Notes under the pieces: generated by a model
What the model was told of the DNA's origin: nothing
What the model saw: the letters and a program-made list of their open reading frames with translations, nothing else
Database searches by the model: none
Program-made: the position numbers and the translations under genes
Source: Actinomycetes bacterium
GTDB taxonomy: Bacteria; Actinomycetota; Thermoleophilia; RBG-16-64-13
Direction of reading: 5' to 3'
NCBI GenBank assembly: GCA_021802965.1
Contig: JAJZQZ010000002.1
Location: 1 to 47,522, forward strand
DNA length: 47,522 nt
Part shown: piece after piece, positions 1-45,218 of the stretch
Layout of the letters: the number at the start of each line of letters is the position of its first letter
Position numbering within the stretch: the stretch's first letter is position 1

Positions 1-435
1 CCGGAGGAGGTGGTCTTCGATCTCGACTTGATCGTCGAGACCGGGGACGGCTCCACCCGGCTGCTGCGCTCGCCGTCGATCGAGCTGGCCGGAGAGGCCG
101 AGTTGCGCATGCTCTGCGACGCGGCCACGAGCGGCGGGGGAGGCGTGCAGATCGACACGTTCCTGCTCCGCGCCCGGGGCTCTGTGCCCCATTGGGAACC
201 TCCGGCCACCCCCCTCGGTGACCCGGACCCGGCAGGCGCCCTGAAGACGCACCGAGACGCCTACTGGCCGGGTGGCTTCAAGAGCACGCCGGTCTACGAC
301 TACGAGAAGCTGCAGTCCGGCAACGTGGTCGGGGGACCGGCCATCATCGAGTCAGACAGCACGACTTACGTCCTGCCTGCCGGGGGCAGCCTGACGGTGG
401 ACGAGTACCGCAACGGCATCATCCAAGTGGCTTAG
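1..435 (+). CDS. C-terminal fragment of a hydantoinase A/oxoprolinase-family (HyuA-like) carboxylase subunit; first of two paralogues, 5' end lies outside the window
   Basis: The frame is open from nt 1. The C-terminus GGPAIIESDSTTYVLPAGGSLTVDEYRNGIIQVA is clearly paralogous to the C-terminus of the 708-aa HyuA-like protein at 1022-3148 (VGPAVIEAEDTTYVVPAGKVFRIDEFLNGNIEDA). Confidence 0.8.
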   Translation, partial: PEEVVFDLDLIVETGDGSTRLLRSPSIELAGEAELRMLCDAATSGGGGVQIDTFLLRARGSVPHWEPPATPLGDPDPAGALKTHRDAYWPGGFKSTPVYDYEKLQSGNVVGGPAIIESDSTTYVLPAGGSLTVDEYRNGIIQVA

Positions 436-436
436 G

Positions 437-596
437 AGGCTGCTGAAATGCAAAGCCTTGGCTCACCAGAACGTGCTGGACGGCGCGATAGGGCGTCCTC
501 GGTCGCACACGTAGCGCTGCTACGCGCGCTCCCTGCGTCCTTCTCTCGCACTCGCCCATCGCGCCCTGGCGGCAAAGCGTCACTTTTCAGCAGCCT
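437..596 (+). repeat. Long form (160 nt) of an intergenic repeat bounded by 12-bp perfect terminal inverted repeats
   Basis: AGGCTGCTGAAA (437-448) is the exact reverse complement of TTTCAGCAGCCT (585-596). Internal hairpins are GGACG-n11-CGTCC and GTAGC-GCT-GCTAC. The right 64 nt are 86 % identical to 42336-42398, and both ends match the short copy at 33369-33436. Confidence 0.7.
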
Positions 597-614
597 TCAG
601 CGAAGGGGGGAGGC

Positions 615-1022
615 GTGAAGCGGCAGATCACCGAGTACCTCGATATCGACCTCGAGTCCGAGATGTGGTGCTGCCACACCTGCGGCGAGGTGCTCATCTC
701 GGCCCGCCAGCCCTACAAGCGGGGCTGTCTGGTGGCGGAGCGCGACCCGCGCGAGGTGCACAACCCCCACATCGAGGGCACCTTCACCTTCGCCCCCGAC
801 CCGGAGTGGTGCCGCCTCCTCGAGTTCTACTGCCCGGGATGCGGAGGGATGATCGAGACCGAGTACCTGCCCCCGGGACACCCGATCACCCACGACATCG
901 AGCTCGACATCGACTCGCTGAAGCAGAAGTACCTGGGGGCCGGCGCCACAGCGGCGGGCTCGGCGGGCGCCGACTGCGCCGGTGGCGACTCGTGCACGCT
1001 GGCCGGGGGAGGTGAGGGCTGA
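615..1022 (+). CDS. Small Zn-binding subunit of acetone/acetophenone-carboxylase type (gamma-like)
   Basis: GTG start preceded by the RBS GGGGGGAGG. Two Cys pairs are present (CCHTCG ... CPGCGG). Size and position between HyuA-like genes fit this subunit type, and the stop overlaps the next start (TGATG). Confidence 0.75.
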   Translation: MKRQITEYLDIDLESEMWCCHTCGEVLISARQPYKRGCLVAERDPREVHNPHIEGTFTFAPDPEWCRLLEFYCPGCGGMIETEYLPPGHPITHDIELDIDSLKQKYLGAGATAAGSAGADCAGGDSCTLAGGGEG

Positions 1023-3148
1023 TGTCCAAGTCCATCGACATCGACATCGGCGGCACCTTCACCGACTGCTTCGTGGTCTGGGACGACCGCACGGTCACGG
1101 GCAAGAGCCTGACCACCCGGCACAACCTGAGCCTCGGCTTCAAGCGGGTGCTGAAGGAGTGCGCGGGCAAGCTCGGGGTCTCCCTGCACGAGGTCCTCGA
1201 CCAGACCGACACCCTGCGGTACAGCACGACCATCGCCACCAACTCCCTCGTGGAGCGCAAGGGTCCCAAGCTGGGCCTCCTCACCACCATGGGCCACGAG
1301 GACACCATCTACATCGGCCAGGGCAGCCAGTGGGCCCACGGGCTCACGAACGAAGAGCAGCGCAACGTGGTGGGCATGCGCAAGCCCGCTCCGCTCATCC
1401 CCGTGGAGATGACCGTGGGTCTCCGGGAACGCGTCGACTGCTTCGGCAACGCCGTCATCCCCCTCAAACGGGAGGACGTGCTCGAGAAGGTGCAGTACCT
1501 GGTCGACAACGGCTGCCGGGGCTTCATCGTCTCGCTGCTCTGGTCGTTCCTCAATCCGGCGCACGAGCAGATGGTCAAGCAGATCATCCGGGAGGAGTAC
1601 CCCGACGTCTACCTGGGCAACGCCCCCATCATGCTCTCCAGCGAGGTGGCGCCCAAGCTCGGCGAGTACGCCCGCACCATGACCACCATCCTGAACGGCT
1701 ACCTGCACGGGGAGATGAAGGAGGAGCTCACCGCCCTCGCCGAGGACCTGCGCGACGAGGGGTTCCAGAAGCCCGTGCTGATCGTCCACAACACGGGGGG
1801 CACAGCCAAGACCTCTCGCACCGCGGCGGTGGCCACGCACAACGCCGGGCCCGTGGCGGGTCTTTTGGGCGCCGCCCACCTGGCCCGGAGCCTCTACGAC
1901 TACGAGAACGTGATCGTGTCGGACATGGGTGGCACGAGCTTCGACATCGGCGTCATGGCGAAGGGGGGCGTCCGCTTCTACCAGTTCGACCCCATCATCG
2001 ACCGCTGGCGCGTCAACATCTCCATGATCGAGACCAAGGCCATCGGCGCGGGCGGCGGTTCCATCGCCTGGATCCACCCCACCTACCGCACCATCCAGAT
2101 CGGCCCCCAGAGTGCCGGCTCCCTGCCCGGCCCGGCGGCCTTCGACATGGGCGGCACCGAGCCGACGGTCACCGACGCCGACATCGTGCTCGGCTACATC
2201 AACCCCGACTACTACCTGGGCGGGCGCAACCGCCTGAACAAGGAGCGCTCGTTCGCGGCCATCCGGGAGCACATCGCCGAGCCCCTAAGCATCGAGGTCG
2301 AGGATGCCGCCCTGCGCATCAAGCGCATCGTCGACGGCAACATGGGCAACGAGATCTTCAAGGAGACCGCCCTCAAAGGCTTCGACCCCCGGGAGTTCGT
2401 GCTCTTCTCCTACGGCGGCGCGGGCCCGACCCACTGCTGTGGCTATGCCGGCTACGTGGGCGTGCAGAAGACGGTCACGTTCCCCTTCGCCTCGGTGTTC
2501 TGCGCCTTCGGCGCCTCGACCATGGATGTACTGCACCAGTACGAGCTTTCCAAGCACATGATCCTGTTCGACCCGAAGACGGGCAGCATGCTCGACGACT
2601 ACGACCTCTTCAACGGGGCTGTCGAGGAGCTGCAACGGGTGGCGATCCGCGACATGCAGGGCGAAGGCTTCGACGCCTCGCGGATCATCTGGAGCCTGGA
2701 GCTCGAGATGCGCTACGGCACCCAGCTTAACTCCGCCCGGGTGTCGTCGCCGCGGGTGAAGGTGGGCGGCCCGGACGACATCAAGTCGATCATGGACATG
2801 CACACCAGCGAGTACAGCACGGTGTACAGCGCCATGGCGGCCTACCCTGAGGGTGGAGTCGAGGTCGACACCTTCATCCTGAAGGCGATCGTGCCCATCG
2901 AGAAGTACCGCTTCCCGAAGCTCGCGCTGGAAGGGGCCGACCCGAGCGCTGCCCGCAAGGGGTCGCGCCAGGTCTGGTGGGAGGAGGGTGCGCGGGACAC
3001 GCCGATCTTCGAGCGGAACGCGCTGCGGGCCGGCAACATCGTCGTGGGGCCGGCGGTCATCGAAGCCGAGGATACGACGTACGTGGTGCCGGCCGGGAAG
3101 GTGTTCCGCATAGACGAGTTCCTCAACGGCAACATCGAAGACGCATAA
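1022..3148 (+). CDS. Hydantoinase A/oxoprolinase-family ATP-binding carboxylase subunit (HyuA / acetone-carboxylase beta / Apc-alpha-like)
   Basis: 708 aa with the N-terminal signature IDIDIGGTFTDCF and a second DMGGTSFD ATPase motif. GC3 is high. Confidence 0.9.
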   Translation: MSKSIDIDIGGTFTDCFVVWDDRTVTGKSLTTRHNLSLGFKRVLKECAGKLGVSLHEVLDQTDTLRYSTTIATNSLVERKGPKLGLLTTMGHEDTIYIGQGSQWAHGLTNEEQRNVVGMRKPAPLIPVEMTVGLRERVDCFGNAVIPLKREDVLEKVQYLVDNGCRGFIVSLLWSFLNPAHEQMVKQIIREEYPDVYLGNAPIMLSSEVAPKLGEYARTMTTILNGYLHGEMKEELTALAEDLRDEGFQKPVLIVHNTGGTAKTSRTAAVATHNAGPVAGLLGAAHLARSLYDYENVIVSDMGGTSFDIGVMAKGGVRFYQFDPIIDRWRVNISMIETKAIGAGGGSIAWIHPTYRTIQIGPQSAGSLPGPAAFDMGGTEPTVTDADIVLGYINPDYYLGGRNRLNKERSFAAIREHIAEPLSIEVEDAALRIKRIVDGNMGNEIFKETALKGFDPREFVLFSYGGAGPTHCCGYAGYVGVQKTVTFPFASVFCAFGASTMDVLHQYELSKHMILFDPKTGSMLDDYDLFNGAVEELQRVAIRDMQGEGFDASRIIWSLELEMRYGTQLNSARVSSPRVKVGGPDDIKSIMDMHTSEYSTVYSAMAAYPEGGVEVDTFILKAIVPIEKYRFPKLALEGADPSAARKGSRQVWWEEGARDTPIFERNALRAGNIVVGPAVIEAEDTTYVVPAGKVFRIDEFLNGNIEDA

Positions 3149-3157
3149 GGGGGCCAC

Positions 3158-5194
3158 ATGGGCATGAAGCTAGATACGGCCGCCATGTGGAAACCGGCTG
3201 CGCCGACCGAGCGTGAGCTGGCCTGCGTGGACCTGGTCGAAGCGGCCGATTTCGAGATCTACGCGCGCAAGCTCGATCTCATCTGCGCGGAAGCGCGGCA
3301 GATCTTCGTGCGCATGGGCGCCGCGCAGATGCTCCAGTCGGGCGACGTGGCTCTGGGCATCTACACGGCCCAGGGAGACCTGGCCGCCTGCGACGTCAGC
3401 ATCTACCTGCACCTGGTGACCGGGCAGATCCCGATCAAGTACATCATGCAGACCTATCTGAGCGAGCCCACGGTGGGCGTGCGCGACGGGGACATCTACT
3501 TCGTCAACGAGGCCACCTTCGGCGGCATCCACAATCCGGACATGATCGTGGTCATGCCCATCTTCCACGAGGACGAGCTGGTCGGCTGGACCCTGGCCGC
3601 CCTCCACGAGGGCGAGACCGGCGCGGTCGACCCCGGAGGCATGTCGGTGGCGGCCAAGACCCGCTACGACGAGGGCATGCACTGGATCCCCATCAAGGTG
3701 GGCGAGAACTACCAGCTGAAGAAGGACCTGGTCGACATGATGGCCAATCAGGTCCGCGACCCGCGCATGCACACCATCGACCTGAAGGCCCGGGCAGCCG
3801 CCTGCGAGCGCATGATCAAGCGCGTCAGGGAGGACGTCATCGGTCGCAAGGGGGTCGACTTCTTCATCGGCCTCATGCGCAAGAACATCGACGTGGCCAC
3901 CGAGGCCGGCAAGGCCATGGTGCGCGAGCTGAACGACGGCACCTACCGCACGGTCATGTTCCTGGACGCCGTCGGGGCCGACTACGGGCTGGTGCGCATG
4001 AAGTTGACTCTCACCAAGAAGGGCGACCACATCGTCATGGACTTCTCGGGTACCTCGCCCGAGACGCCCGACGGACCCTTCAACACGTACAAGCACGTGG
4101 TCATCGCCGGCTCGGCCATGTACATCTATCAGTTCCTCTTCTCCGACCTGCCCCCGACCGCCGGCGCCATGACCCCGTTCGACTACGAGTTCACCGCCGG
4201 CTCGCTGCTCGACGCGAGCGCCGACGCCGCCTGCGCCTGCGGCGTGCTCACGGCCGGCTTCCTCTCCTTCTACGCCATCCCCTCCTGCTTCGCCAAGATG
4301 ATCTTCGACAGCCGCTGGCGCGACAGAGCGGCAGGCATGTGGGGGACCCCGTCGCCGCCCTTCATGTACGGCGGCTTGAACCAGTATGGGTTGCCCGTGG
4401 CCGGCCTGGCGTCCGACGCGCTGAACACTCAGGGCGCCGGTGCCCGTCAGGACCACGACGGCGAGAACGCCGCGGGTTTCTCCTTCTGCCCCACCGGCTT
4501 CCTGCAGGACGCCGAGTTCACCGAGTTGCAGCTCCCGTGGTTCTACCTCTTCCGCAATCGCCACATGCCCGACAACCACGGCATGGGCAAGTACCGGGGC
4601 GGCACGGGGGTCATGATCGGCTACGTGCCGCACAACGTGCCCTGGCTGGTCTGCGGCTCGTCGCAGGGCGGCAACAAGTTCCCGCCGGAGAAGGGCCTGT
4701 TCGGAGGATACGCGGCCATGACGCCGGTGGCGGTCCAGGTCACCCACAGCGACCTCAAGCAGCTCATGGCCGAGTCGAGCGACACGATCCCCTACGACGT
4801 CTTCGAGGTCCTCGACAAGCGGGCGGTGGAGGGCGACTACGCCATCGAGAGTATGATCCGGCCCTTCCGGCCCATCCCGGGCGACGACATCATGCTGATG
4901 CCGTCCTTGGGGGGCACCAGCTACGGCGACGTCCTCGAGCGCGACCCGCAGCTGGTGGTCGATGACCTGCGCTCCCGGGTCACGACGGACTGGACGGCGT
5001 GGAACGTATACCGGGTGGTCTACGACCCGGAGACCCTGCGCGTCGATCACGACGCGACGGCGAAGGCGCGCGCCGAGGAGCGTGAGGCCCGGAAGAAGCG
5101 GGGACGCCCGTACGACGACTTCGAGAAGGAATGGCTGCAGAAGCGACCGGCGGACGAGATCATCAAACGATACGGCGATTGGCCGAACCCATAG
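3158..5194 (+). CDS. Hydantoinase B/oxoprolinase-family carboxylase subunit (HyuB / acetone-carboxylase alpha-like)
   Basis: 678 aa with the RBS AAGGGGG. The length and sequence character are HyuB-like, and it directly follows the HyuA-like gene. Confidence 0.88.
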   Translation: MGMKLDTAAMWKPAAPTERELACVDLVEAADFEIYARKLDLICAEARQIFVRMGAAQMLQSGDVALGIYTAQGDLAACDVSIYLHLVTGQIPIKYIMQTYLSEPTVGVRDGDIYFVNEATFGGIHNPDMIVVMPIFHEDELVGWTLAALHEGETGAVDPGGMSVAAKTRYDEGMHWIPIKVGENYQLKKDLVDMMANQVRDPRMHTIDLKARAAACERMIKRVREDVIGRKGVDFFIGLMRKNIDVATEAGKAMVRELNDGTYRTVMFLDAVGADYGLVRMKLTLTKKGDHIVMDFSGTSPETPDGPFNTYKHVVIAGSAMYIYQFLFSDLPPTAGAMTPFDYEFTAGSLLDASADAACACGVLTAGFLSFYAIPSCFAKMIFDSRWRDRAAGMWGTPSPPFMYGGLNQYGLPVAGLASDALNTQGAGARQDHDGENAAGFSFCPTGFLQDAEFTELQLPWFYLFRNRHMPDNHGMGKYRGGTGVMIGYVPHNVPWLVCGSSQGGNKFPPEKGLFGGYAAMTPVAVQVTHSDLKQLMAESSDTIPYDVFEVLDKRAVEGDYAIESMIRPFRPIPGDDIMLMPSLGGTSYGDVLERDPQLVVDDLRSRVTTDWTAWNVYRVVYDPETLRVDHDATAKARAEEREARKKRGRPYDDFEKEWLQKRPADEIIKRYGDWPNP

Positions 5195-5231: not shown

Positions 5232-6227
5232 GTGGCGACGGTGATGACATCGCGCGATCGCGTCCGGCGCTTCTTCGAGGGGGCGTCGGTCGACCGCATG
5301 CCCATCATCCTGCACGCGGGTCGCTATTCCGCGCGCCTGCAGCAGCTGACGTACCAACAGGCGTCGGCCGACCCCACTCTCCTGGCGAACGCCGTGCAGA
5401 GCGCCCTGAGGCTCTTCGGTGTGGACGGCATCGTGCTTCCCGCCGACCCGACCATGGAGGCCGAGGCTCTGGGCTGTGCGGTCGCCTGGGAGGACGACGA
5501 GCCGGTGGTGGTCAGTCACCCTCTGGCGGGCGAGGCGGCCGGGGCGGCGATCGAGACCGCGGGCATGGACACCCGCGGTCGGGTCGGCGTGATGCTGGAG
5601 GTCACCCGCCGCCTCATGGCTGTGATCGGCCGCGACGTCGCCGTGATACCGGCGGTCACCGGTCCGGCGACCCTGGCTCACCTGCTGCGGGGGCCGGAGT
5701 TCCTGGTCGACCTGGACGACGCCCCGGAGCGTGCCCGCCAGATCGTCGAGGGCGCGGCCAAGGTGACCATGCATATCGCCAAGGAGTGCCTGGAGATCGG
5801 CACCGGTCAGCTCGTGGTCAACGACCCGCTGGTGGGCAGCTTGAAGAAAGAGCACTATCAGTGGATCGGCAACATCCTGCGCCCGTTGTGGAACGTGGCC
5901 GACTTCTTCGACGCGCTCCTGCTCCTGGAGACCGAGGTCGCCGACCTCGAGCGGGTCCAGGATCTACTGCGGCTGGGCGCCGGCGGGCTGCTGGTGGGAG
6001 GCGGATACGCCCCCGCCGAGGTGGCCGGACTCGGGGGGGACACCGCCTGCGTGGCCGTGGGCTTTCCGCCGTCGTTCTTCAGCCGGCCGCCGGGAGAGCT
6101 CGAGCCGGTCGTGTCGGCCTGGTACGCGTCGGGTGAGCGGCAGCGGGGGCTGCTGGCCTGTGGCACCTTGCCCCGAGGGGCGCCGGCGGAGAACGTCCAT
6201 GAGGTGTTGCGCGTGCTGCGCGGATAG
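5232..6227 (+). CDS. Uroporphyrinogen-decarboxylase (URO-D / MtaA-CmuA-like) family protein
   Basis: GTG start after the RBS AGGAGGGAGG. The N-terminus (MTSRDRVRRFFEGASVDRMPIILHAG) matches the family's typical ..eR...al.g...DR.P. opening. The part of the track ORF upstream of 5232 overlaps hyuB out of frame. Confidence 0.6.
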   Translation: MATVMTSRDRVRRFFEGASVDRMPIILHAGRYSARLQQLTYQQASADPTLLANAVQSALRLFGVDGIVLPADPTMEAEALGCAVAWEDDEPVVVSHPLAGEAAGAAIETAGMDTRGRVGVMLEVTRRLMAVIGRDVAVIPAVTGPATLAHLLRGPEFLVDLDDAPERARQIVEGAAKVTMHIAKECLEIGTGQLVVNDPLVGSLKKEHYQWIGNILRPLWNVADFFDALLLLETEVADLERVQDLLRLGAGGLLVGGGYAPAEVAGLGGDTACVAVGFPPSFFSRPPGELEPVVSAWYASGERQRGLLACGTLPRGAPAENVHEVLRVLRG

Positions 6228-33368: not shown

Positions 33369-33436
33369 GGCAGCTGAGAAGTGACGCTTCGCCGTCGGGC
33401 GCATTCCCGGCGGCCAGGGCTTCGATCTCAGCAGCC
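33369..33436 (-). repeat. Short, internally deleted form (68 nt) of the TIR-bounded repeat seen at 437-596
   Basis: Read on the - strand it is GGCTGCTGAGATCGAAGCCCTGGCC...GCGCCCGACGGCGAAGCGTCACTTCTCAGCTGCC. The left ~27 nt and right ~37 nt align to the two ends of the 160-nt copy. Its own 11-nt termini are inverted repeats with one mismatch. Confidence 0.65.
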
Positions 33437-42332: not shown

Positions 42333-42335
42333 GTG

Positions 42336-42398
42336 CCTGCGTCCTCGTCTCGCGCTCGTCCGTCGCGCCCGGCGGCAAAGCGTCATTCTTCGGCAGCC
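42336..42398 (+). repeat. Truncated copy (63 nt) of the intergenic repeat; fills the LuxR-stop to ACAD-start spacer
   Basis: 55/64 aligned positions (86 %) are identical to 532-595, including GGCGGCAAAGCGTCA. It lacks the left terminal arm. Confidence 0.7.
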
Positions 42399-42401
42399 TG
42401 C

Positions 42402-45218
42402 TCAGGAGATGAGACCGAGCTCCCGAGCTCGCGCGACCGCCCGGGTGCGGCTGTGAGCGCGTAGCTTACCGTTGATGTTGCGCAGATGGAACTTGACCGT
42501 GGGCACGGTGACGAACAGCCGGTCGGCGAGCTCGCTGTTGGAGAGTCCCCGCGCCACCATCTCGAGGATCTCCGTCTCTCGCGCCGTGAGGGGCTCGGAT
42601 GGCTGCTCTCCCACGTGCTCGAAGGCGTCGGCGCCCTGCCCGAGCGTGGCGGCCACCGGGAGTCCGTGGGCGGCGCGGGAGCCCGTCGCGCCCGCCTCCA
42701 GCACGCGGTCAAGGTAGTCGATCGTCAGAGTGCCGGCGAGCGGGGGCTCCTCGGCGAGCGCGCTCCGCAGCTCGGCCGCCAGGCGCAGCACCCTGGCCCC
42801 TTCGTCGGCGAACGTGCGGACGAACCCCTCCTGGCTTCCGAAGAAGAGGGCCTCGCGCAGCGTCCGGAGCGCCCCGCGGTGGTCGCGGGCGCCCTCGAGA
42901 GCCTCGGCCATGAGGATGCGCAGCTTGAGCGCCCGACGCAGGTGGCCCGTGTCGCCCGCCCTCGCCAGCTCGGTACGGGCGAGAGCGAGCGCCCGTGCGT
43001 GCTGCCCCGATCGGGTGAGGAGCCTGACCCGGCTCACCTCGCACGTCTCGGGGTCGCTGGCCGGCATGCCCCAGCCGGCGAAGAGCCGCCAGACCTGGGA
43101 GTCTTCGTCGCTCTGCTGCTGCAGCTGTTCGGCCTCCGCCACGTGTCCATGCTGCAGAGCCAGGCGGATCTTCTCCAGGCGGAGGGTGGCGGCGACCCGC
43201 GGCGTCGCGCGTTCTCGGCCGAGGAGCTCGGCCTCTTCGAGCAGGCGCGAAGCGGCCTTCTCCTCTCCTCGCACGACATGCACCCGCGCGAGCGTGAGGT
43301 ACCCGAGCATCATGACGTCGAGCGGGACGCATTCCCTGAAACGGTCACGCGATTCGGCCAGCAGCTGCTCGGCTTCGTCGAGCCGGTCCATCTCGTAGAG
43401 CGCCTCGGCCAGGAAGACCGCCGCAACCGCGCCCGTCTGACTCTGGGTGAGCGAAGCCTGGCGCACCGTCGTCTCCGCCGCTTGGTAGCGTTCGAGCGCG
43501 ACGCTGAGGCGCCCTTGGAGCAGATCCAACGCTCCGATCAGGCAGACGGAATACATCGCCCCGAAGACGTTCCCCCCCCGGGAGTGACAGACCTCGGCGC
43601 TCTCCAGGAGGTCGCGCGCTTCGTCGAAACGTCCCGCCTCGAGGAGGCGGCAGCCGAGGCAGTTGGCAAGAACACCATAGGGGAACGACTCGCGGTCGGC
43701 GATCAGCGGAAGATTCCGCTCCGAGAGCTCGAGGCACTCGTGCACGTTGTCGGTCAGCGAGAGCACGACCGATTCGAGCGAGTACACCTGGTCGAGGACG
43801 GTCGGGTCGGCCGGGTGGTCCGGATCGAGCCCCTGCACGATCTGATCGAGAACGACGCGGGCCTCGGCATGGCGGTGGCGCATCGAGAGGGCCCAGCAGA
43901 GCGCGATGCGCAGCTCGGGGTGGCGGTCGAGGGTCTCGGAGGGGAGGCGGTCGACCCAGTCGGCCACCGTGCGCAGTTGCCCGAGCCCCACGAGCGTCAT
44001 CGCGCACTCGGCGACCAGGCCCGCGGCCCTGTCGAGGTCGCCGGCCGCCAAAGCATGCTTCGCGGCTTCGACCGCGTGCCCCTGATCCACGAACCAGTCC
44101 GCCGCCAGATGATGCAGGTCGGGCACGGCCTCGGGCAGATACCGCTCGGCCTGACTCCGGAGGAACTCCGAGAAGAGGTTATGGTAGCGGTACCAGCGCC
44201 GGTCCTTGTCGAGCGGCATGAGGAAGAGGTGGGCCTGCTCGAGGTACGAGAGGAGCTCGTAGCTGTCCGACCGTCCGGTGACCGTGTCGCACAGGGGGCC
44301 TGAGAGCCGGTCGAGCACGCTGGTCTCGAGCAAGAAGCGCCGCACATCCTCCGGTTGGCGCGAGAGGACATCTTCGGCCAGGTAGTCGGCGATGTCGGCG
44401 AAGGAACCCGAGAACGACTCGATGAGCGCCTTCTTGTCGGCGCGTCCGGTAAGAGCGAGGGCGGAGAGCTGCAGGCCGGCGGCCCAGCCTTCGGTGCAGC
44501 CGTAGAGCCGGGCAAGCTCGTAGTCGGCGAGCTCGAGGCCCCGGCACCTGCGGAGGAAGAGGTCGGTCTCGTCCCAGGCGAAGCGCAGGTCGTCGAGGTC
44601 GATCTCGCAGAGCTGGCCCCGCACGCGCAGCCGGGCGAGGCCCAGGTCGGGAGTGCGCCGTGATGCCACGACCAGCAGCTGCCCGGGAAGTGAGCCGGCG
44701 ATGAGTCCCCGCACGATCTGCAAGACCTCGGCGTTGTGCACGACCTCGAAATCGTCGAGGAACAGCGCGATCGGCCGGCCGTACTCTTCGGTCATCCACT
44801 GGCGTATGCGCAGGATGTGCTCTCCCGCGCCGTTCCCGGCGCCGTAGGGAGAGCCTTCCCGGGCGACCCCGTCGAGGGAAGGGTCGATGGTGCGGAGCGC
44901 TCCCACGACGTACGCTTGGAACCGGGCCACGTCGTTGTCGGCCTCGTCCAGCGTGAGCCAAGCGGTGGGGACGCCGCGCTCCTGCAGCCGGGCGTGGAGC
45001 TGGAGCATGACCGTGGTCTTGCCGAACCCCGCCGGGGCGTGGATGAGGGCGAGTCTCGAGTGCAGAGCGGAGCCGAGCCACTCGTCGATCCGGTTTCGCT
45101 CGATCGAGGAGTCGGCGAGCGGTGGGCTGAGCTTCGAACGCAGGAGCCGCGGGTCGTGCTCGCTCGACTCGAGTGGCTCACGCCCGACTTGTTCGGTCGG
45201 TCTTTCGGTGCCCTTCAC
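42402..45218 (-). CDS. Large ATP-binding LuxR-family regulator (LAL / MalT-like)
   Basis: Contains Walker A HAPAGFGKTTVM, a long TPR-like helical region and a C-terminal LuxR HTH (LTARETEILEMVARGLSNSELADRLFVTVPTVKFHLRNINGKL). I prefer GTG 45218 (RBS GGGGGGAG) because codons 45219-45350 show 34 % A/T at third positions versus about 19 % just downstream. Confidence 0.82.
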   Translation of the reverse strand: MKGTERPTEQVGREPLESSEHDPRLLRSKLSPPLADSSIERNRIDEWLGSALHSRLALIHAPAGFGKTTVMLQLHARLQERGVPTAWLTLDEADNDVARFQAYVVGALRTIDPSLDGVAREGSPYGAGNGAGEHILRIRQWMTEEYGRPIALFLDDFEVVHNAEVLQIVRGLIAGSLPGQLLVVASRRTPDLGLARLRVRGQLCEIDLDDLRFAWDETDLFLRRCRGLELADYELARLYGCTEGWAAGLQLSALALTGRADKKALIESFSGSFADIADYLAEDVLSRQPEDVRRFLLETSVLDRLSGPLCDTVTGRSDSYELLSYLEQAHLFLMPLDKDRRWYRYHNLFSEFLRSQAERYLPEAVPDLHHLAADWFVDQGHAVEAAKHALAAGDLDRAAGLVAECAMTLVGLGQLRTVADWVDRLPSETLDRHPELRIALCWALSMRHRHAEARVVLDQIVQGLDPDHPADPTVLDQVYSLESVVLSLTDNVHECLELSERNLPLIADRESFPYGVLANCLGCRLLEAGRFDEARDLLESAEVCHSRGGNVFGAMYSVCLIGALDLLQGRLSVALERYQAAETTVRQASLTQSQTGAVAAVFLAEALYEMDRLDEAEQLLAESRDRFRECVPLDVMMLGYLTLARVHVVRGEEKAASRLLEEAELLGRERATPRVAATLRLEKIRLALQHGHVAEAEQLQQQSDEDSQVWRLFAGWGMPASDPETCEVSRVRLLTRSGQHARALALARTELARAGDTGHLRRALKLRILMAEALEGARDHRGALRTLREALFFGSQEGFVRTFADEGARVLRLAAELRSALAEEPPLAGTLTIDYLDRVLEAGATGSRAAHGLPVAATLGQGADAFEHVGEQPSEPLTARETEILEMVARGLSNSELADRLFVTVPTVKFHLRNINGKLRAHSRTRAVARARELGLIS

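Follow-up and report, generated by a model that had tools for sequence, protein, structure and literature searches.

The window, by which we mean the whole 47,522-nucleotide stretch that was analyzed, is contig C28 of the genome assembly (3.24 Mb, 263 contigs, 78% complete, 67% G+C) of an uncultured soil actinobacterium, the source sample of which was a mine-drainage metagenome. Positions 1-5194 hold a HyuA / small Zn subunit / HyuA / HyuB carboxylase cluster with an acetophenone-carboxylase-like layout, which is interrupted by a palindromic element. This element lies between the first HyuA/Apc-like gene, whose stop codon TAG is found at 433-435 of the + strand, and the gene of the small subunit, whose ribosome-binding site GAAGGGGGGAGG (602-613) precedes a GTG start at 615. 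A sequence-only reading of this DNA had described the spacer as a 160-nt element (437-596) closed by a perfect 12-bp inverted repeat, and this anatomy was confirmed, since AGGCTGCTGAAA (437-448) and TTTCAGCAGCCT (585-596) are perfectly complementary. Alignment of the window copy with 27 other full-length copies from its own genome extended the element by one base on either side, to true ends at 436 and 597, which gives 162 bp in a family with a consensus copy length of 161-163 bp and a consensus of CTAG-GAGGCTGCTGAAG...CTTCAGCAGCCTG-CTAG. The family profile matched the window copy over 432-598 (E 3e-48). The features of the element and its two further copies in the window are as follows:

432-435, + strand: left flanking tetranucleotide TTAG (YTAR target or duplication), the TAG of which is the upstream stop codon
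436-597, + strand: probable MITE of subfamily A, 162 bp, in the (+) orientation of the profile and sense to the operon
436-448, + strand: left terminal inverted repeat GAGGCTGCTGAAA, identical at 11-12 of 13 bases to the IS5-group insertion sequence (IS) end CAGGCYGCTGAAA
448-618, + strand: 56-codon ORF of this copy alone; its ATG lies 8 nt past AGGAGG, it spans the element, and its TGA stop overlaps the GTG at 615
491-506, + strand: conserved core motif 1 GGGCGTCCTCGGTCGC; on the complementary strand GCGACCGAGGACGCCC, an internal loop
507-527, + strand: apical hairpin (helix 6), variable in sequence with compensatory changes
528-549, + strand: conserved core motif 2 GCTCCCTGCGTCCTTCTCTCGC; on the complementary (folded) strand GCGAGAGAAGGACGCAGGGAGC
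585-597, + strand: right terminal inverted repeat TTTCAGCAGCCTT, consensus CTTCAGCAGCCTG
598-601, + strand: degenerate right flank CAGC, where the second YTAR copy is expected (TCAG, 597-600, if one base was lost)
33369-33436, − strand: internally deleted short form that consists of the two arms (about 40 nt of one and about 28 nt of the other) and lacks the core
42335-42402, + strand: truncated right-end copy (profile positions 100-168, E 5.7e-12; 86% identity in blastn)

The AGGAGG at 434-439 is composed of the AG of the left flank and the GAGG of the element, and the ORF that starts behind it may re-link translation between the two flanking genes, i.e. restore their coupling. Its ATG is missing in the family consensus GAAGATCG and no reading frame is kept open consistently among the family copies, so the bridging ORF is not a feature of the family.

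The two additional copies, which had been reported at 33369-33436 and 42336-42398, are both real according to blastn and the profile, and all three copies of the window are intergenic; the one at 42335-42402 fills the spacer of two minus-strand genes and is antisense to both. When the 160-nt sequence was compared with the whole assembly using blastn, 28 full-length matches and many partial ones were found, and an nhmmer profile built from these matches, combined with blastn, raised the count to at least 112 non-overlapping loci in the own genome. Full-length copies account for about 38 of these, while the others are left halves, right halves or core-less arm-to-arm deletions, the form seen at 33369-33436 being present at seven other loci. 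The copies of this genome diverge from each other by 11-28%. The family was also found in 20 of 41 related genomes, representing 15 of the 30 sampled genera of the same taxonomic family, and a scan with the core motif yielded more than 113 loci in metagenome-assembled genomes (MAGs) labelled Solirubrobacterales, Solirubrobacteraceae, Gaiellales, Gaiellaceae, Conexibacteraceae or Thermoleophilia. The sequence-only reading had allowed that the three window copies could be a local duplication relic if there were no further copies, no covariation and no conserved termini; further copies, covariation and conserved termini were all clearly found, and with 112 loci here and hundreds more in related genomes we give no credence to a local relic or a chance palindrome without a family. 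A literature search revealed no published description of these repeats, so that they are a known kind of element, ordinary mobile DNA, in a family that is undescribed as far as this search goes. Among individual loci, two full-length copies lie head to tail with 5 nt between them in one relative (L007:1497-1830, i.e. G005:C29:4110-4432), and in the ATP synthase operon of the own genome half copies occupy the atpF/atpH spacer and the site after atpC, before murA (C223:781-852 and 5888-5982). Half copies 3-5 kb apart were considered as the ends of a large composite transposon, and this idea was rejected because the intervals between them turned out to be a two-component system and the atp operon, as expected for independent fragments.

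In genomes of two sister genera (G007 and G005), the orthologous gene pair overlaps by a GTGA stop/start and contains neither a spacer nor an element, and the window copy is therefore an insertion. By comparison with these relatives, it has split a coupled gene pair and shortened the first protein by about seven codons; the spacer that resulted is structured and measures 179 nt. Three further copies of the own genome, on contigs C65, C14 and C142, likewise have no element at the orthologous sites of the same-genus genomes G001 and G002. At the C14 site the sequence is ...T CTAC AG... where the element is missing and CTAG-element-CTAC where it is present. Copies of subfamily A, to which the window copy belongs, carry CTAG-like flanks on both sides. 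The left flank equals the right one in only 7 of 37 copies, which, with a nearly invariant target, is not significant against shuffled pairs (p = 0.17). The copies are also old, and the flanks of old copies decay independently of each other; the data are thus consistent with, though not proof of, a 4-bp duplication in this subfamily. In 22 of 79 left flanks and 18 of 77 right flanks, the tetranucleotide was found to include the stop codon of a neighboring gene. With respect to neighboring genes, the copies lie mostly between convergent or tandem genes and seldom between divergent ones (35 vs 6), and they show a strong sense bias (45:8) in the fetched loci of the other subfamilies but only a slight one (21:14) in the own genome, both comparisons being based on a crude GC3 gene caller.

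A candidate for the mobilizing partner was present in the G007 genome, where the PF01609 matches include a 1433-bp IS with about nine intact copies at 99-100% identity, plus fragments. Its 389-aa product matches NF033581 (IS5 family) with 242.6 bits at a cut-off of 140 and contains DUF772 and DDE_Tnp_1. The ends of this IS are CAGGCTGCTGAAAAAG and CAGGCCGCTGAAATA, and its flanked copies read TTAA-CAGGCTGCTGAAAAAG...TATTTCAGCGGCCTG-TTAA and CTAG-...-CTAG. In most of the homologues from other genera (62-81% identity), the CAGGCYGCTGAAA end and YTAR flanks are retained; the one in G010, which is 81% identical, is flanked by TTAG on both sides and has a subfamily-A element about 130 bp away. Altogether, a 4-bp YTAR duplication was seen in three of four IS copies (TTAA/TTAA, CTAG/CTAG and TTAG/TTAG). 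The fourth (L177, G007:C1, ~1904923-1906089), a copy of the 1433-bp IS, has the unequal flanks CTAG and TTAG, which suggests recombination between IS copies. The right end of the element, directly beside CTAG, agrees with the IS terminus at all of 12 positions, while its left end differs from the IS end at a single position, where G replaces C as the first base and, combined with the flank, yields AGGAGG. Since the similarity between IS and element is confined to these 13-bp termini, the element is not a simple deletion derivative of the IS. Other PF01609 matches of the own genome (C77 and C16) were also considered as partners and were discarded, as their termini are unrelated.

These findings led us to conclude, with a probability of roughly 0.8, that the segment 436-597 is a non-autonomous transposon (MITE) of the IS5 family with IS5-group ends, and its mobilization by an IS5-group transposase is what we infer from the shared termini. 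The pattern of long, internally deleted and truncated forms had already suggested a MITE-like family to the sequence-only reading, and this view was borne out by the 112 loci, the empty sites, the conserved termini, the CTAG-type flanks and an IS5-group IS with the same terminal repeat. That reading had, however, seen neither a target-site duplication nor a transposase: decayed YTAR flanks are in fact present and a matching transposase exists in relatives, while its finding of no transposase holds for the own assembly. According to the proposed mechanism, the IS5-group transposase, acting in trans, would have bound both termini and pasted the element into the TTAG that ends the first HyuA/Apc-like gene. 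In a genome of 67% G+C, YTAR sites would be mostly limited to stop codons, and a preference for this target would explain why copies sit on them; such insertions would be tolerated because the duplication restores the stop codon. At the present locus, the insertion would have parted two genes that share a GTGA overlap in relatives and left the first of them to stop at the TAG of the flank, and the copy would now be co-transcribed with the operon. A homologue of the partner transposase was absent from the own, 78%-complete assembly (tblastn), and it was also missing in several copy-rich genomes, including G005, which is 100% complete, holds at least 22 copies and contains no PF01609, PF13358 or PF01797. 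Because there is no cognate transposase in the own assembly and its copies differ by 11-28%, the window copy is most likely an immobile fossil, and the expansions of the family look like old events that are now orphaned.

The interior of the element was analyzed for its capacity to fold. The RNA of the window + strand has a predicted energy of −79.5 kcal/mol (z = −1.85), whereas the complementary strand reaches −100.3 kcal/mol (z = −6.7) and forms one long imperfect hairpin, and it is again the complementary strand that folds better in 54 of 55 full-length copies (mean −96.4 vs −79.6 kcal/mol). Its consensus structure, derived from 37 diverse copies, contains 55 pairs, 37 of which show compensatory changes; 93.6% of cells are paired, compared with 79.8% in shuffles and 32-44% with slid partners, and the covariation score is 0.478 against 0.23. 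Furthermore, G·U pairs occupy 208 cells and A·C mismatches 25 (23 vs 2 positions), an excess of about 8:1 that was seen in both subfamilies and that identifies the complement of the window + strand, i.e. the complement of the strand transcribed with the window operon, as the better-pairing one. Covariation of the outermost helix is to be expected because both ends must fit one transposase, but the inner helices and the apical hairpin covary too, and in the latter (helix 6) 8 of 13 pairs are altered on both sides. The folded strand also presents two near-invariant loop motifs, GCGAGACAAGGACGCAGGGAGC (motif 2) and GCGACYGAGGACGC (motif 1). The first of these belonged to the 22-nt retrieval pattern, so its invariance in the fetched loci arises partly by construction, while motif 1, which lies outside that pattern, is near-invariant across the subfamilies. 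As judged from these patterns of substitution, the interior is under selection in single-stranded form and in one polarity, that of the complement of the window + strand, and it may help transposition or act as RNA. In the own genome, core, stems and termini show an even spread of singleton substitutions, which gives no signal of purifying selection per copy, and selection is therefore placed on the source elements, on which it probably acts, rather than on each inserted copy. In one Gaiellaceae MAG (L089, ~5422), a copy of subfamily B carries an extra hairpin of about 45 nt inside the left core motif.

Relatives with the same interior and other ends were also found. Subfamily B, present in Gaiellaceae, has the termini GAACTCGCATCGAAATGAAG...CATTCCGAAACGAGTTC and 3-bp TNA duplications that match within each copy (TAA/TAA, TTA/TTA, TGA/TGA and CTA/CTA). 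Its terminus is identical at 18 of 21 bases to that of a 901-bp IS of the G037 genome (L157), the ends of which read TTA-GAACTCGAATCGAAACGAAGG...CATTCTGATGCGAGTTC-TTA and which contains two overlapping frames and an A6G slippery site, an arrangement typical of the IS427 group. To judge from these termini, subfamily B is an independent parallel, a MITE with IS427-type ends. Subfamily C consists of relatives of about 100 nt that keep the core and have no conserved termini; their closing stems vary by species and stay complementary, and their terminal CTGAG...CTCAG or CTTAG...CTAAG are inverted rather than direct and include the upstream stop codon. A copy of this kind occupies the atpG-atpD spacer of six related Solirubrobacteraceae MAGs (L061, L023, L042, L086, L110 and L095), where it is about 100-130 nt long, sense to the genes and placed exactly on the atpG stop codon, and has covarying stems and an apical hairpin of variable length. 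Where this stop codon is TGA instead of TAG, the opposite arm has TCA instead of CTA. The copy was absent at eight correctly oriented loci from eight genomes of the nearest sampled family and is thus confined to one clade.

Three readings compete with the proposed one, or qualify it, and two of them concern the transposase. The CTAG flanks would equally fit a MITE of the IS630/Tc1-mariner type, which inserts at CTAG and duplicates TA, and DDE_3 genes are indeed present in G000 (as a fragment), G001, G007 and G022. However, the intact IS630 copies of G001 and G022 have CTAG-TAGTCCGTTCC as their end, a sequence without relation to the element termini, and gave no profile match, no IS630-family member with GAGGCTGCTGAA termini was seen, DDE_3 is missing in G002, G005, G010, G013 and G023, all of them copy-rich, and it is the IS5-group IS that matches the termini exactly, so that we regard an IS630 origin as very improbable. 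Scarcely credible, in turn, is a REPIN/REP-like or IS200/IS605-type palindromic element moved as single-stranded DNA by a Y1 (RAYT/TnpA) transposase. The long strand-specific hairpin, the tetranucleotides at both ends, the dispersal and the use of the element, like REPs, as a target by other insertion sequences all resemble such a system, but PF01797 (Y1_Tnp) was found in none of 25 genomes of the taxonomic family, including the copy-richest, while control genomes and other families of the class were positive, and this absence excludes the REPIN and IS200/IS605 mechanisms. The bias in orientation relative to replication, moreover, is weak in G007 (about 24 of 37 copies co-oriented, with replichores taken from a sampled GC-skew profile that places the origin near 2.65 Mb and the terminus near 0.6 Mb) and cannot be separated from the gene-strand bias. 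The IS5-family MITE has its own difficulties: classic MITEs keep their termini while the interior drifts, whereas here the interior is conserved and subfamily C has no conserved termini; the partner transposase is missing in the own genome and in several copy-rich ones; and one of the four IS copies has unequal flanks.

According to the third reading, the element is in the first place a structured module of RNA or single-stranded DNA that has its own function, and the IS5-family ends are mere vehicles lent to it. It could serve, for instance, as a signal for processing or stability, as a terminator or insulator that acts directionally, or as a scaffold for protein binding. In this form, the core of about 90 nt (two loop motifs containing GCGTCCT and a covarying hairpin) would be a self-contained single-stranded module (an RNA of defined polarity or a strand-specific DNA hairpin being most likely) that was repackaged in at least two IS5-family groups and survives without ends at fixed loci such as atpG-atpD. 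Several observations speak for it: (i) the core motifs and helices are common to subfamilies with unrelated termini and different duplication lengths, (ii) subfamily C combines the lack of conserved termini with species-variable yet complementary stems and inverted closing pairs, (iii) at atpG-atpD in six MAGs a change of the stop codon is compensated on the other arm, (iv) a single-stranded form is indicated by the covariation and by the 8:1 ratio of G·U to A·C, and (v) copies of relatives are present in contigs of a soil metatranscriptome, although these contigs carry no strand information and may include DNA. Against it stand the even spread of singletons in the own genome, with no detectable purifying selection per copy, the antisense orientation of the better-pairing strand, which holds for the operon at this locus and for most neighbors in subfamilies B and C, the persistence of core-deleted short forms, the partial retrieval artefact behind the invariance of motif 2 in the fetched loci and the confinement of the atpG-atpD copy to one clade, with eight genomes of the nearest sampled family lacking it. 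Nor was any Rfam family matched: among the Rfam covariance models the best hit on the window copy had E = 1.7, and none reached E ≤ 0.1 on four loci with subfamilies B and C. An integron attC site, another structured single-stranded candidate, was dismissed, as the copies are scattered among housekeeping genes and not arranged in arrays. We therefore consider a primary module with borrowed ends unlikely, at perhaps one chance in four, and hold its repackaging and end-less survival to be an equally tentative proposal; the strand-specific covariation of the interior nevertheless leaves room for a single-stranded function within the IS5-family MITE that we prefer. The sequence-only reading had also put forward a co-transcribed RNA role, for example as an RNase III site, a stabilizer or a means of uncoupling the two subunits; such a role may exist, but the strand that pairs better is complementary to the one transcribed with this operon.

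The repeats also serve as targets. In a variant subfamily, motif 2 contains CTAG, the insertion site of other insertion sequences. Three contigs of the own genome (C38:1-182, C13:1-182 and C221:1-120) begin with the same IS end, including a transposase C-terminus (...KKVALVACMRKLLTILNAMVRENRPFDVSLHHA, followed by the stop), and this end is joined at ...GGTTA-CTAG-TCTSGCGCG to the right parts of three different element copies, the CTAG being that of the variant core motif. The core of the MITE seems to be a landing site for this IS, much as REPs are for IS621 and IS1111. The sole PDB match of the KKVALVACMRKLLTILNAMVRENRPFDVSLHHA C-terminus was the C-terminus of the IS621 (IS110-family) transposase, with E = 1.5, Pfam gave no match on these 33 aa, and the IS is absent from the relatives, so its assignment to IS110 is weak. 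A second multi-copy IS end, ...GGGGGCGACCA-CTAG, was noticed at C247:1-125 and C209:18-125 and at the ends of contigs C65, C222 and C72; it adjoins five different sequences, always at CTAG, one of which is the core CTAG of an element copy, and it is thus another CTAG-targeting IS that breaks the assembly.

For annotation, the proposed reading means that the spacer is mobile DNA and no dedicated regulator of the carboxylase operon, and the same family explains many puzzling palindromic spacers of 100-170 nt in Thermoleophilia MAGs as well as many assembly breaks. For the biology of operons, the locus is a natural experiment in tolerance, as an overlapping, translationally coupled gene pair has become two cistrons with 179 nt of structured spacer between them. 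A MITE with an interior more conserved than its termini is unusual, the more so as this interior is strand-specific and shared by two IS5-family groups and by end-less forms; if it should prove to be a functional module after all, transposons would be spreading a functional structured element rather than junk.

Among known systems, the element is closest to the MITEs of the IS5 family (4-bp YTAR in the IS5 group, TNA in the IS427/IS1031 group), with which it has in common the short non-coding form, the IS termini, the YTAR/CTAG flanks, the dispersal and the filled and empty sites, and subfamily B likewise matches an IS427-type IS. It differs from them in sharing with its IS the 13-bp termini alone, in the conservation of the interior rather than the termini across orders and in an own genome that lacks the partner IS. 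The Correia/NEMIS elements of Neisseria, which were compared at the level of architecture and function, are also MITEs of about 100-160 bp with terminal inverted repeats and full and internally deleted forms, and both kinds insert beside genes and are co-transcribed into hairpin RNA; in Correia elements, which occur in Neisseria alone, the duplication is TA, and an IHF site and promoter elements are present. With REP/REPIN sequences and their RAYTs, the family shares dispersed hairpin repeats at the 3' ends of genes that are landing sites for other insertion sequences, but its whole taxonomic family is without a RAYT/Y1 gene and its termini match a DDE transposon. MIRUs are comparable in that they, too, are repeats between the cistrons of operons, and the small ORF of the window copy has a stop that overlaps the start of the next gene; this ORF is, however, specific to the window copy, and MIRUs are tandem units of 46-101 bp without terminal inverted repeats. 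The unusual interior echoes the problem posed by the ERIC/IRU (127 bp) and YPAL/RU-2 repeats of enterobacteria and yersiniae, which are intergenic, co-transcribed, long imperfect palindromes found in both orientations and inside operons, with the whole sequence and hairpin conserved across genera far beyond neutral expectation. To our knowledge, no transposase partner of ERIC has been identified. The likeness, an intergenic and conserved long hairpin, is one of architecture and function. The present element belongs to a different phylum, would have no sequence relation to these repeats, is about 162 bp long, is flanked by CTAG and has termini that match a specific IS. It offers a tractable system for this problem, in which both the transposase and the ends are defined and the core lends itself to deletion or compensation.
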